64,000 bases of DNA from contig OY843592.1 of NCBI GenBank assembly GCA_963692865.2, positions 448,001 to 512,000 on the forward strand, in the 5' to 3' direction. The notes under the pieces are model-generated. The model searched no databases and was not told the DNA's origin. It saw only the letters and a program-made list of their open reading frames with translations. The position numbers and the translations under genes are program-made. Of this stretch, positions 34,958 through 64,000 are shown in pieces (position 1 is the first letter of the stretch; each line of letters begins with the position of its first letter). The DNA comes from a bacterium. GTDB taxonomy: Bacteria > UBA8248.

Positions 34958-35049
34958 TGGCGGAGAGGGAGGGATTCGAACCCCCGGTGCAGTCGCCTGC
35001 ACAACAGATTTCGAGTCTGCCGCCTTAAACCGGACTCGGCCACCTCTCC
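34958..35049 (-). tRNA. tRNA-Ser(CGA)
   Basis: GGAGAGGTGGCCGAGT...GCAGA-CT-CGA-AA-TCTGT, long variable arm, GGTTCGAATCC, encoded CCA. Confidence 0.95.
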
Positions 35050-41264: not shown

Positions 41265-41627
41265 ATGCGCGCCCAAAAATACAGTTGGGACGAAATGCCC
41301 GAGGAGGTCTTGAACGATACCTTATCGCGAAAGATGGTGGTGGGCGAAAAAGAGATGCTTTGCTGGCTCCAGCTCAAACCCGGGTGCGTGGTGCCCCTGC
41401 ACAGCCACGAGCACGAGCAGATCTCCCACGTCATCAAGGGAAGACTTCGGTTCTTCATTGACGATGAAACCGTGGAAATCGGGCCGGGTGAAACGCTCCT
41501 CATCCCACCACACGTCCCCCACTCCGTGGAAGTCGTGGGCGATGAGACGGCGATAGACTACGACATCTTCAGCCCCATCCGCGAAGACTGGGTCGACGGG
41601 ACCGATGATTACCTGAGAGACGAATAA
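41265..41627 (+). CDS. Cupin domain protein
   Basis: PLHSHEHEQ, PHVPH, DIFSPIREDW. Confidence 0.9.
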   Translation: MRAQKYSWDEMPEEVLNDTLSRKMVVGEKEMLCWLQLKPGCVVPLHSHEHEQISHVIKGRLRFFIDDETVEIGPGETLLIPPHVPHSVEVVGDETAIDYDIFSPIREDWVDGTDDYLRDE

Positions 41628-41767
41628 CCGGAATTCACCCGCCGTAGGCTGGCCTGCCGCCGCGAGAGCGTATCGGTGCGGCCTCCCTGCGCGCCGTTTG
41701 GTGCGTTCCGCGACTTGCCAAACAATACGAACCCAGAAAAAATTCCGAAACTCATGATTTCCCTTCA

Positions 41768-41937
41768 TCCCCAGATATTGTATCCACAACCCATCCACAT
41801 ACTATATATGGATTCCCTCTAACCAGTTGCTTTATTTGAGGTAATCCGGTTTCCCCCATCTGGATAAACTGTGGGTAAAATCCCCTTTTTAACCCAATAT
41901 CTTGTGTGGCGAGAAAAAAATATACTACATTTTGTAT
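41768..41937. promoter_or_regulatory. Array of NrdR-like boxes (41768-83, 41799-814, 41892-907, 41922-37), DnaA-like boxes (41780-88, 41791-99, 41859-67, 41870-78) and IHF-like site (41820-32)
   Basis: Cores CCAGATATTG, CTATATATGG, CAATATCTTG, CTACATTTTG fit CwAtATaTwG and form pairs 31 and 30 bp apart; 9-mers are 1-2 mismatches from TTATCCACA. Confidence 0.7.
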
Positions 41938-41945
41938 TAAATTTC

Positions 41946-41974
41946 TTGACAGATGGAAAAATTCGGCTTACCTT
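41946..41974 (+). promoter_or_regulatory. sigma70 promoter
   Basis: TTGACA-17-TACCTT. Confidence 0.7.
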
Positions 41975-41980
41975 GTCAGG

Positions 41981-42276
41981 CAAGGGTAGCAGATAAAGTC
42001 ACTTCAGCAAGAGTTCAGGTAGGCGCGTCCGCCCCACATCTTTACAGAAAAGTAATTTTCGCAGGAAGGTCGTCGACGTTTGTCGTGATGTTGGGCGGAA
42101 AAGTGATCCTTCCGGGCATCGCCTGCCCTTTCCTTCCAGATGATGCCCTAATCCCACCTAGGGGCCCCCACGGGGCCCCATAAATATGAAATACCGGCCT
42201 ACGGGCACCGACGCCGGATGCCGCTCAAGCACCGTTCAGAACAAAACAGCCCCCCTCGCCGGGAGGGGGGCTTTCT
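41981..42276 (+). ncRNA. Candidate structured non-coding RNA, unassigned family
   Basis: Promoter upstream, terminator downstream, several nested stems (42028-40/42087-99, 42047-60, 42074-85, 42114-25/42137-48, 42161-79), no credible ORF. Confidence 0.5.
42248..42276. terminator. Bidirectional intrinsic terminator (hflC and the candidate ncRNA)
   Basis: AGCCCCCCTC-gccgg-GAGGGGGGCT flanked by A-rich and T-rich tracts. Confidence 0.8.
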
Positions 42277-42291
42277 ATATCAGAGACGATA

Positions 42292-43245
42292 TTACTCGGA
42301 TTTTTTCTCTGCCGTTTCCTTGAGTCTGCTCTCGGCTTTGACTTGCTCCACACCCTTGTTCTCGGAGCTTTGCAGGAAGCGGAGGAAATCACTGCTTGCG
42401 GGCAGCACCAGGGTCGTCTTGTCCTTGAGCGAGCCCTCATACACTTCGAGGCTCTTCAGGAAAGCGTAGAATTCCTCATCCTGCCCGAACGCCTGGGCAT
42501 TGATGTCAATGCTCTTGGCGTCTCCCTCGCCCTTGATGGTCTGTTCTTTCTCGTAAGCCTCCGCGAGGAGCACGTCTCGCTCACGATTGGTCTCCGCCCG
42601 TATCTTTTGGGCCTGCTCTTTTCCTTCCGAGCGGTACTGGCGGGCGATTCTCTGCCGCTCGGCCTGCATGCGCCCGTAAATGGCCTTCAGGTTCTCGGTG
42701 GGCAAATCGGCGCGCTTCAAGCGCACGTCCACGATCTGAATGCCGTAGGCGCGCGCTTTCTTGTCACTTTCTTTCGTGACCTTGGCCATCAGTTGCGCGC
42801 GTTCTTTCGCCACGATGTCGATCAGGTCCTTGCGGCCGAGTTCCAGGCGCAATTCACTGTAGATGATGTCGTCGAGCCGGGCCTGCGCCCCCGTTTCGTT
42901 GCGGACGGTGCGCAGGAACTGCAGCGGATCGACGATGCGCCAGCGCGAGAAGTTATCCACCACGAGGGATTTCTTGTCCTGCGTGATGATCTCCGTGGGG
43001 TTGGAGTCGTACTCCAGCAGGCGTCGGTCGAAAAACGAGAGTTGCTCCACGAACGGCAGCCGATAGTGAAGGCCCGCATTCCGCAAGACTCGCACGGGCT
43101 TGCCAAACCGGGTGACGACCACCTGTCTGTCTTCGCGAATCGTGAACAGCAGCGAATTGAGGCCAAAGACGATTATCAGGATCAAGACGAACAGGGCGAT
43201 CGTCTTTTTGGGCAATTTTCTGGTTTCTGCTCCCTCGGCGCTCAT
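42292..43245 (-). CDS. hflC: FtsH modulator HflC
   Basis: SPFH domain, ITQDKKSLVVD, RMQAERQRIA, FYAFLKSLE. Confidence 0.95.
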   Translation of the reverse strand: MSAEGAETRKLPKKTIALFVLILIIVFGLNSLLFTIREDRQVVVTRFGKPVRVLRNAGLHYRLPFVEQLSFFDRRLLEYDSNPTEIITQDKKSLVVDNFSRWRIVDPLQFLRTVRNETGAQARLDDIIYSELRLELGRKDLIDIVAKERAQLMAKVTKESDKKARAYGIQIVDVRLKRADLPTENLKAIYGRMQAERQRIARQYRSEGKEQAQKIRAETNRERDVLLAEAYEKEQTIKGEGDAKSIDINAQAFGQDEEFYAFLKSLEVYEGSLKDKTTLVLPASSDFLRFLQSSENKGVEQVKAESRLKETAEKKSE

Positions 43246-44288
43246 CGTTTCGTCACCCCTTCAATTCCATTCCCCCGCAGCGGGAGTATGGGCAGAACGC
43301 CCGATTTGCCCTGATCCAGGATCACCTTGTCCACAGTCGGCATCACCTCTTTCATCATTTCGAGGTAGAGCCTCTCGCGCGTGATCGCCGGCGCTTTTCT
43401 GTATTCCTTGAGCGTCGCCAGGAAGCGATTCGCATCACCACGGGCGTGGCGGATCTTGGTCTCCCGGTAGGCTTCCGATTTCCTGATGATGGCGGCCACC
43501 TTGCCCCGCGTCTCGGGTATCACCTGGTTCTGATAGCCCTGGGCCTCGTTCACGAGGCGGTTTCTGTCCTCACGGGCGCTGGCCACGTCCTTGAAGGCGT
43601 GAATGACTTCCTTGGGCGGCGTCACGTCCTGTAGCTGCACAGCCACCACTCGCAAGCCGGTTTCGTAGCGATCCAGTATCTTCTGAAGCTCCACGAGCGT
43701 CTCCTGCTGAATCGCGCCCTTGCCGGTGGTGAGCGCCTCGTCGATGGGCTTGCTGCCCACCACCTGGCGGATGGCGGCCTCCGCCGCGTGCACCACCGTT
43801 TCTCTGGGGTTGCGCACCTTGAAGAGATACTTGTCCGCCTCCACGATGAGGTACTGGACGATCATGTCGACGTCCACCATGTTCTCGTCCCCGGTCAGCA
43901 TCCTCGATTCATGGGGCTTGTCCGAATATCGGGCGGGAGGCCCGGGGTCGATGGTGCGGAAACCGATCTCCACGCGCTTCACTTCCGTGACTTTCGGCGT
44001 ATAGGCGGTCTCCATCGGGAAGGGCATATGGTAGTTCAGGCCCGAGGACACCACCCGGTCGATGCGTCCGAAGCGCAGCACGATTCCCTGCTCGTCCGGC
44101 CCCACGCTGAAAATACCCGAAGCCAGCCAGAGCAGGGCCGCCACCACGAATATGGCAACGGAGGGAAGTTTGAAATTCGGCAGACGGAACTGCGGCAGCT
44201 TGATCTGCGGCGGGATGCCGCCACCGCCGCCGCCTCCTGATCCACCCCCCTGTCTTCTCGATTTGAACTCATCCCAATCCATCGGCAT
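43242..44288 (-). CDS. hflK: FtsH modulator HflK
   Basis: MLTGDENMVDV, AFKDVASARED, ITRERLYLE; AGGAG RBS before ATG 44288. Confidence 0.95.
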   Translation of the reverse strand: MPMDWDEFKSRRQGGGSGGGGGGGIPPQIKLPQFRLPNFKLPSVAIFVVAALLWLASGIFSVGPDEQGIVLRFGRIDRVVSSGLNYHMPFPMETAYTPKVTEVKRVEIGFRTIDPGPPARYSDKPHESRMLTGDENMVDVDMIVQYLIVEADKYLFKVRNPRETVVHAAEAAIRQVVGSKPIDEALTTGKGAIQQETLVELQKILDRYETGLRVVAVQLQDVTPPKEVIHAFKDVASAREDRNRLVNEAQGYQNQVIPETRGKVAAIIRKSEAYRETKIRHARGDANRFLATLKEYRKAPAITRERLYLEMMKEVMPTVDKVILDQGKSGVLPILPLRGNGIEGVTKR

Positions 44289-44394
44289 GAGCGTCTCTCC
44301 TATTGGCGACGTATGATTTTTGTCGAGACGGAGCGCAAAATATCGCCTCATCAAGCGCCCATCCGCTTCACCCTATGCGCGTTATGGTTTGAAG

Positions 44395-58952: not shown

Positions 58953-59068
58953 TTCCGGCGACGACCCACTCTCCCACGGAAAGGACCGCAGTACCATAGG
59001 CGCTGGCGGGCTTAACTGCCGTGTTCGGGATGGGAACGGGTGTGGCCCCGCCGCTATAGCCACCGGAA
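58953..59068 (-). rRNA. rrf: 5S rRNA
   Basis: CCCGTTCCCATCCCGAACACGGCAGTTAAG...GATGGTACTGC-like and GGGAGAGT motifs. Confidence 0.95.
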
Positions 59069-59151
59069 ATTCCTGAAATTCCCGACAATCAAATCACGCG
59101 ATTGGCGACATCAAGCTCCCGGCCGAGAACCGATGAGAGAAATCTCGAATC

Positions 59152-62141
<2,990 letters not shown>

Positions 62142-62295
62142 GAATCTTGAGATTTCAGATCCTCAGCCAATACTGAGAGCCTTCAATGATTATGCCAATT
62201 CACGCGATTCGATTGTCAAAGAGCAAAAGGCGGAAGAAACTCCCGCCCGGATTGCTGAAGAATTCAAATTCATCGTCCACAGCCGCCGGTTCAGA

Positions 62296-62371
62296 TGGTG
62301 GAGATGAGCGGGCTCGAACCGCCGACCTCCTGGTTGCAAACCAGGCGCTCTCCCGACTGAGCTACATCCCC
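62296..62371 (-). tRNA. tRNA-Ala(TGC)
   Basis: GGGGATGTAGCTCAG...CCTGG-TT-TGC-AA-CCAGG...CCA in the ITS. Confidence 0.96.
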
Positions 62372-62496
62372 ATCTCAGATTCCGCTTCAGGGAACGGCCC
62401 GCGACGATGAGCCTGCTCGGCTCCGCTCAACGGTCCATCCACGCCATCGCTCCCAGGCGTTTCATGTCATGCGCCTCGTCCCCGACCATCCCGATA

Positions 62497-62573
62497 TGGT
62501 GGGCCTACCTGGATTTGAACCAGGGACCTCGCGCTTATCAGGCGCGCGCTCTGACCAACTGAGCTATAGGCCC
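62497..62573 (-). tRNA. tRNA-Ile(GAT)
   Basis: GGGCCTATAGCTCAG...CT-GAT-AA...CCA in the ITS. Confidence 0.96.
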
Positions 62574-62888
62574 GCGACCTCGCCCGCGCGATCTTGAATC
62601 CAACTACCGCGTCGGGACTCACCCAGGCATTCGGCCCAAATTCAAATGCAATCGAATCCGGGACAATTCGCATACCCGCTGTGGCGTTATTCTCAAGAAC
62701 AGGATATGGACGGCCCGAGACGGGCCATCGACCTTGAAGCGCCGATTCGTTCTGCAACCATCCTGCCATACGCCAAGGGCGCAAGGCGGCGTCGCACGAT
62801 CTTCAGGCAAGTGAGCGGCTTGTTCTCACCGGACGGCGAAAACGCCCTCTCTCCCCTCCCGTGCTTTTTGAAAACGAATCTTTCAGCA

Positions 62889-64000
<1,112 letters not shown>

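Follow-up and report, generated by a model that had tools for sequence, protein, structure and literature searches.

A genus-restricted candidate small RNA behind tandem NrdR operators and DnaA boxes at the hflC 3′ end

Locus, promoter and predicted RNA

We analysed a 64,000-nt window of bacterial DNA (contig OY843592.1 of assembly GCA_963692865.2, positions 448,001 to 512,000); the window here means this whole stretch, and coordinates are counted from its first letter unless a contig or locus is named. Our subject is the intergenic spacer at 41628-42291, which holds an array of NrdR and DnaA boxes, a sigma-70-type promoter and a predicted non-coding RNA. One neighbour of the spacer is a cupin gene on the plus strand (41265-41627; Cupin_2, E = 8e-17); the other is a Band_7/SPFH gene on the minus strand that we call hflC (42292-43245; Pfam domain Band_7), with a second, hflK-like Band_7 gene (43242-44354) behind hflC. 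A first-pass annotation, made from the sequence alone, had described an orphan structured RNA behind an NrdR/DnaA-type promoter at this place. Its observations were confirmed, with the features lying where it had put them or close by; the convergent flanks, the TTGACA-17-TACCTT promoter, the lack of a credible open reading frame (ORF) and the terminator can all be seen in the sequence. Since the flanking genes converge, nothing coding lies downstream of this promoter.

The spacer contains two tandem pairs of NrdR boxes. The NrdR box is described as a 16-bp partial palindrome in which C4, A6, A8, T9, T11 and G13 are highly conserved (PMC13584703), and boxes are usually paired at a spacing of 15-16 bp, with spacers of 14-18 bp bound well by one NrdR (PMC12051234). 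We scored boxes at these six literature-based positions instead of using our tandem scan with a position weight matrix, which had been trained in part on the boxes of the locus and is circular for them. All four boxes score 6/6: TCCCCAGATATTGTAT (41768-83) and ATACTATATATGGATT (41799-814), with a spacer of 15 bp, form pair 1, which is kept in 19/19 aligned relatives, and ACCCAATATCTTGTGT (41892-907) and ATACTACATTTTGTAT (41922-37) form pair 2. Across the 3.94-Mb contig (C1), 27 tandem sites score at least 11/12 in this test and four score 12/12, two of them at the locus.

Three DnaA-like boxes are placed between and beside the NrdR pairs. The DnaA-box consensus is the 9-mer TTATCCACA, which GTATCCACA (41780..41788, plus strand) matches at 8/9 positions while overlapping the end of NrdR box 1. 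The two others, TCTGGATAA and TGTGGGTAA (41859..41878, minus strand), are adjacent, 2 bp apart and in reverse orientation; each matches at 8/9 positions, and both are nearly invariant across the alignment of this region (A1). Three such boxes in 400 nt, counted at no more than one mismatch to this consensus, place the locus among the four densest clusters on C1.

The sigma-70-type promoter follows on the plus strand, with TTGACA at 41946-41951 and, after 17 bp, TACCTT at 41969-41974, and its expected start is at about 41981. It was not listed by a consensus scanner because TACCTT matches TATAAT at 3/6 positions only; the -10 hexamer of most relatives is TACATT, and TTGACA and TACATT-like hexamers are conserved in 17/19 aligned sequences. 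A second promoter is possible inside NrdR pair 2, where TTGTGT (41902-07) and TACATT (41926-31) stand 18 bp apart. Transcripts from it would start about 40 nt earlier, and it is the sole promoter-like arrangement left in four species that lack TTGACA.

The predicted RNA would extend on the plus strand from 41981 to 42280, which gives a length of about 300 nt from the expected start or about 340 nt from the embedded promoter. It has the sequence-level marks of a small RNA (sRNA), namely its own promoter, an intrinsic terminator and no ORF. Its near-invariant 5′ segment is AAGGGUAGCA (41982..41991; alignment A2). The 5′ GGGUAG can pair with CUAUCC (UAAUCC in this genome, 42148-53), a helix that RNAalifold places at columns 6-11/176-181 and that is 96.9% paired without variation; alternatively, AAGGG can pair with the loop sequence CCCUU. 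A variable domain, P1 (42028..42099), consists of a stem (42028-40/42087-99) around two small hairpins, one of which (42047-60) is of GNRA type. It is followed by a near-invariant core of 88 nt (42100..42187; alignment A3, covariance model R1), which is built from the segment AUCCUUCC (42106-13), the hairpin P2 (GGGCAUC/GAUGCCC, 42114-20/42142-48) with its CU-rich loop CCCUUUCCUUCC (CCCTTTCCTTCC as DNA; 42126-37), the segment UAAUCCCACC (42149-58) and the GC hairpin P3 (GGGGCCCC-CAC-GGGGCCCC, 42161-79). The CU-rich segments of the core are invariant and predicted to be unpaired. P3 was considered as a repeated extragenic palindrome and rejected, as it occurs once in the genome; the element as a whole is also single-copy. 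A poorly conserved linker (42188..42247; column identity 0.56-0.72) leads to a bidirectional intrinsic terminator common to the predicted RNA and hflC (42248..42280, both strands), which has a 10-bp GC hairpin (stem 42248-72) and a T-run that is stronger toward the hflC side.

The P1 stem, P2 with its pyrimidine loop and P3 are present as first described and are adopted in the minimum free energy (MFE) fold. Two small hairpins, GAAAA-GTAA-TTTTC (42047-42060) and CGAC-gttt-GTCG, can likewise be read in the sequence but are missing from the MFE fold. Two pairings from the first-pass annotation did not hold up among the relatives: the closing helix GTAGGC/GCCTAC (42019-24/42197-202) is found in this genome only (43.8% of cells paired in 16 sequences), and GGAAGG (42064-69), taken there as a pseudoknot partner, reads GGCAAG in 11/16 relatives. 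The plus-strand MFE is -112.9 kcal/mol, compared with -98.3 +/- 5.6 kcal/mol for shuffled sequences (z = -2.59; 2/200 shuffles as good). In the 16 sequences, a model of five helices is 96.4% paired versus 46-55% when the partners are slid, and P1 is paired in 88.6% of cells. In 13/16 sequences, the only variation in the tetraloop of the GAAAA-GUAA-UUUUC hairpin is an exchange of GUAA and GCAA, which are both GNRA loops. The terminator stem carries two pairs that change on both sides (AU/GC and GC/CG), the sole repeated compensatory change in the set.

Searches against Rfam 15 were in keeping with the description of the RNA as an orphan. The region 41600-42320 had no match at gathering thresholds, E <= 10 brought up only sub-threshold noise from the terminator hairpin, and the loci of eight relatives had no match. 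6S RNA (RF00013) is similar in being non-coding, a few hundred nucleotides long and rich in long helices; it was rejected as an identity, given that the 6S gene of this genome lies elsewhere (C1:1422028-1422210, 87.5 bits) and the locus does not match the model.

Conservation in the genus and a second genus

The relatives compared here belong to the Nitrospinota/Nitrospinaceae and are mostly metagenome-assembled genomes. A blastn search recovered the spacer, in synteny, from 22/22 genus members and from 0/14 genomes of other genera in the family; outside the family, one spurious 30-nt match was returned. The order cupin-spacer-hflC holds wherever a contig spans both flanks. Flanks were examined at 22 loci of the genus: none has a gene for ribonucleotide reductase (RNR) downstream, and in all of them the terminator is followed by the convergent hflC. 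The predicted RNA is therefore not the stranded 5′ untranslated region (UTR) of an existing gene, a possibility that the first-pass annotation had raised, and no same-strand gene stands behind it that it could control as a riboswitch.

Conservation along the spacer was scored as column identity on 17 rows of a 19-sequence alignment, with L019 and L020 set aside. The first ~140 nt after the cupin stop codon are mostly at 41-62% (with 0.71 in one 20-column bin), the box region is at 83-96%, the promoter and 5′ part of the RNA are at 74-92%, and the core is at 91-93%. P1 is rearranged in three loci (L014, L015 and L017), mostly deleted in a fourth (L016) and absent in one genome (G019), with the core kept. 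Model R1 of the 88-nt core has a single match per genome in 18/22 genus members and in the genome of the window, and no match in any of 19 genomes from eight other genera. Seventeen genomes of the genus score 99-115 bits; lower scores belong to G019 (72.5 bits) and G010 (24.2 bits). The RNA is orphan and conserved, but it is restricted to the genus and does not form a widespread new class of RNA: what we describe is a genus-specific predicted sRNA with an unusual regulator.

A second genus of low GC content (g5) carries an analogous element at the hflC 3′ end (L049:1180-1530 in G026; also L073, L074, L124 and L126-L128), between a gene for a lipoprotein-like protein of ~220 aa and hflC. Its NrdR boxes score 6/6 and 5/6 with a spacer of 15-16 bp, and 6 nt further on stands a TTGACA-17-TATAAA-like promoter. 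In the predicted fold of its conserved non-coding core of ~170 nt, three hairpins are enclosed by a closing helix of ~12 pairs (16 nt on each side, with one mismatch and G-U wobbles allowed); the core ends in a U-rich tail and has no Rfam match. nhmmer gave no significant match between the RNAs of the window's genus (g1) and g5 (E = 3.7); at the hflC 3′ end, the same type of operator is thus followed in the two genera by RNA bodies with no detectable similarity.

With the six-position test, tandem boxes downstream of hflC were found in 6/6 g1 loci, 3/3 g5 loci and 0/21 loci from twelve other genera, although contig ends truncate some of the 21. In a set of 56 metagenomic hflC loci, tandem boxes occur only in two of g1 type and four of g5 type, with no new sequence variants. 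Two sister genera (g2 and g9) have a gene for a ~220-aa lipoprotein-like protein between cupin and hflC, with no boxes (L046:2340-3130 and L048:650-1530). The window's genus has lost the lipoprotein-like gene or replaced it by the element of boxes and RNA.

The ribonucleotide reductase parallel and what the locus may do

The genome encodes nrdR (TIGR00244, 186 bits), and one RNR gene was detected, 2.9 Mb from the locus. The promoter of this gene has two tandem NrdR pairs, of which the second begins over the -10 hexamer, together with two interleaved DnaA boxes (two to three near the promoter in relatives) and TTGACA-18-TACATT; this layout is conserved in 12/12 relatives inspected. The description of the locus promoter as NrdR/DnaA-type was therefore upheld, with four boxes at 6/6, an nrdR gene in the genome and an RNR promoter of the same architecture. 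The likeness of the two promoters in sequence is confined to one NrdR box, box 4 of the locus, which has 13/14 bases in common with the RNR -10 box.

Three further tandem NrdR sites were noted on C1 outside the window. A 12/12 site at C1:1439308-1439354 (locus L113) lies upstream of a 73-aa ORF with a Shine-Dalgarno (SD) sequence, which is followed by a cold-shock-like ORF and then an EF-G-family paralogue (GTP_EFTU, EFG_III). Another 12/12 site, C1:1863089-1863135 (locus L114), is directly upstream of a DNA methylase gene (N6_N4_Mtase) and an MTaX1/HNH endonuclease gene, in an AT-rich neighbourhood. A site scoring 11/12, at C1:1389519, is situated between genes for a HAD hydrolase and a PNP oxidase.

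Our preferred reading is that the spacer encodes a lineage-specific, independently transcribed plus-strand sRNA of ~300 nt, which would act in trans as part of the RNR control circuit; we put its chances at about even. We infer transcription from the promoter and terminator, and binding by NrdR and DnaA from the two tandem operators and three DnaA boxes, which would stand immediately upstream of the sRNA promoter or promoters and probably overlap them. NrdR is described as an RNR-specific repressor (PMC9110341), and published NrdR biochemistry has it binding DNA while it carries dATP together with ATP and released otherwise. At the locus, NrdR with dATP and ATP would repress the sRNA. As NrdR lets go of DNA without these ligands, the sRNA should rise with RNR when deoxynucleoside triphosphates (dNTPs) are scarce, and it may be made alongside RNR whenever dNTPs run short or replication demand is high. 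The first-pass annotation had likewise proposed an RNA that responds to dNTPs or replication.

On the side of action, the invariant unpaired AUCCUUCC, the loop CCCUUUCCUUCC and UAAUCCCACC could pair with purine-rich SD regions of target mRNAs and so lower their translation, without Hfq. The CU-rich core segments resemble the 3′ tail of the organism's 16S ribosomal RNA (rRNA), GGAUCACCUCCUUUCU. For a small set of CU motifs counted from the last box to the terminator, the plus strand holds more than the complementary strand in 19/22 loci and equally many in three, a weak statistic given that the sequences are related. No Pfam match to Hfq (PF17209) or CsrA (PF02599) was found in this 97%-complete genome, which does have hflK and hflC. 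A k-mer scan for targets returned hundreds of SD-like sites, with many genes carrying GGAAGGAAA-type sites.

Several observations weigh against the reading as a trans-acting sRNA. RNAduplex, run against ~3,300 crudely defined start regions, gave no specific signal, and the start region of the RNR gene ranked at the 9th percentile; since the target scans were non-specific, the target side of the proposal is purely something that we infer. The strand bias of the CU motifs is absent in L015, L019 and L020. With regard to structure, folding energy alone does not pick the strand, since the minus strand comes close to the plus strand (z = -2.41). Apart from the terminator stem, the search for covariation that the first-pass annotation had recommended brought up two-sided changes at two of 11 P1 pairs, each seen in a single sequence; P2, P3 and the 5′ helix are invariant and yield no covariation, which is minimal overall because the core does not vary. 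At the promoter, the spacer of NrdR pair 2 is 14 bp, one below the usual 15-16, and neither NrdR pair covers the TTGACA -35 hexamer, both being placed upstream of it. The genome G010 carries large internal deletions. Lastly, conservation is stricter for the operator array than for the RNA body. Four species (G001, G007, G009 and G015) retain both NrdR pairs and the DnaA boxes with neither the RNA core nor a clear TTGACA promoter, and have a short differing sequence of ~70-200 nt ahead of the terminator. These short versions hold pyrimidine motifs such as CUCCCUC, AUCCCUCC, CCUUCCCUUC and CUUUCCUUC.

Because the boxes outlast the RNA body in these four species, a function at the DNA level stays in play. 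The selected element would then be the cluster of NrdR and DnaA sites itself, serving for titration or as a reservoir in the manner of datA/DARS, with the transcript a by-product. This would account for the retention of the boxes in 22/22 genomes and for the rank of the locus among the densest DnaA-box clusters of the contig, and the boxes of the locus fit the consensus better than those of the RNR gene (6/6 in all four versus 6/5 in each RNR pair). We regard it as unlikely nonetheless, as it leaves unexplained ~200 nt of conservation downstream with a near-invariant 88-nt core, the conserved -35 and -10 hexamers and the restriction of loop variation to GNRA, and as the second genus repeats the layout of a promoter plus a structured RNA.

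It is also conceivable, if improbable, that the RNA sequesters or scaffolds a protein (e.g., one that binds pyrimidine tracts or hairpins) and does not pair with mRNAs. Invariance goes past the plausible seeds to the whole of hairpins P2 and P3, the genome has no second copy of the P3 palindrome, the multi-branched fold exceeds shuffled sequences in stability, and a genome with no detected Hfq would suit such a role. However, CsrA, the classic partner of sponge RNAs, was not found in the 97%-complete genome, GGA motifs are on the strand that lacks the promoter, and the divergent species keep CU-rich stretches only, not the hairpins. A sponge of CsrB/RsmZ type on the minus strand was rejected outright, with no PF02599 match and no conserved promoter for the GGA strand.

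The constant position of the element next to hflC brings up a cis-acting role, in which a convergent transcript would modulate hflKC at low dNTPs by transcriptional interference or 3′-end overlap. The element always abuts the hflC 3′ end, in two genera with dissimilar RNA bodies, and in the window's genus the sRNA and hflC transcripts would use one bidirectional terminator. On the other hand, the strong 10-bp GC hairpin of that terminator separates the two units, the invariant internal sequence is left unexplained, and the common position may simply be inherited synteny. We find this role quite improbable.

We consider it very unlikely that the locus is a relic, i.e., the promoter and leader of a lost second RNR operon conserved in part by inertia. 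Although the promoter architecture mirrors that of the RNR gene, down to the near-identity of box 4 and the RNR -10 box, the element is conserved across 22 species, with its own terminator and near-invariant core, next to a spacer that has decayed, and RNR genes are absent downstream at all 22 loci of the genus with examined flanks. Nor is the RNA a duplicated RNR leader: this was rejected because 440/500 shuffles score as well against the RNR 5′ UTR.

A minus-strand pseudo-ORF (MPGRITFPP..., 42042-42119) starts 6 nt behind the SD-like GGAAGGAAAGGG, the complement of the CU-rich loop. That the spacer encodes a small protein, either from this frame or from a plus-strand ORF, is scarcely credible: the SD-like sequence is strong and the minus-strand frame is open for 36-46 aa in 11/16 sequences, but it was rejected as a protein because it is truncated or frameshifted in 5/16 (two close relatives have a 2-nt insertion) and its variable columns are distributed 15/12/11 over codon positions 1/2/3, with no third-position bias; no minus-strand promoter is evident. 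The 76-aa plus-strand ORF at 41953-42183 has no Pfam match, and no plus-strand ORF is conserved: across the 19 aligned sequences, the longest one shifts in both start and frame.

Taken as a whole, the interpretation offered in the first-pass annotation, an orphan RNA linked to NrdR and DnaA, has partial support, which is strong for the DNA side and comes from conservation only for the RNA side.

Related systems and significance

The cumulative GC skew of C1 has its minimum at 0.70 Mb (0.7-0.8 Mb on coarser samples) and the terminus near 2.5 Mb. The locus, at 0.49 Mb, is away from the skew minimum and was therefore rejected as oriC. An rRNA operon on the minus strand near the locus (58953-64000; 5S, 23S, two tRNAs, and a 16S gene cut by the window end) is co-directional with a replication fork that would start from the origin placed by the skew at 0.7-0.8 Mb, and a further tRNA gene is found at 34961-35049. 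Identical 40-nt contexts recur between the main contig and the small contigs C4-C8 of the assembly (C1:1177975; C1:1921031, minus strand; C4:430; other C1/C4-C8 pairs), which suggests repeated elements or redundant contigs (contamination estimate 6.7%).

The closest parallels on the DNA side are the NrdR-repressed RNR promoters (nrdAB, nrdJ, nrdDG and nrdHIEF), which have the same tandem 16-bp boxes ~15 bp apart at a sigma-70 promoter. The locus differs from them in having no RNR or other gene downstream and a predicted non-coding product, as well as in its one 14-bp spacer. datA and DARS of Escherichia coli are intergenic, non-origin clusters of DnaA boxes conserved as DNA, and in this they resemble the locus, which adds NrdR operators, a conserved promoter, an RNA body and a terminator.

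On the RNA side, RoxS/RsaE of Firmicutes are Hfq-independent, trans-acting sRNAs with C-rich seeds, controlled by redox or nitric oxide regulators. The predicted RNA is like them in its stand-alone promoter, its terminator, its unpaired C/U-rich motifs in loops and linkers and the absence of a detected Hfq in this genome; it is about three times longer, belongs to another phylum, has NrdR and DnaA boxes upstream, and has no Rfam or sequence relationship to them. CcnA of Caulobacter crescentus is a cell-cycle-controlled sRNA with a C-rich loop, driven by CtrA and located at the origin. Compared by description only, it has in common with our candidate a C-rich loop and, on our preferred reading, a tie between sRNA transcription and the replication or cell-cycle machinery, whereas the locus lies ~0.2-0.3 Mb from the GC-skew minimum and has NrdR and DnaA boxes. 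In the literature, no NrdR-controlled small RNA and no work on small RNAs of Nitrospina was found by title or abstract among the matches listed.

More broadly, and as a tentative proposal, NrdR and DnaA may command a regulatory RNA that broadcasts dNTP shortage or replication demand to translation, and NrdR-gated RNA bodies may turn over while their place and promoter persist. The reach of this proposal is narrow, as a computational prediction in one mostly uncultured genus with an analogous element in a second. The host lineage consists of marine and sponge-associated Nitrospinota, nitrite oxidisers for which almost no RNA regulators are known, and the locus would provide a case in which the body of an sRNA is reshaped or replaced while operator and position are kept. 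If our preferred reading is right, the NrdR regulon would extend from RNR genes to post-transcriptional control, and the coupling of dNTP supply and replication status to the rest of cell physiology would become open to concrete study.

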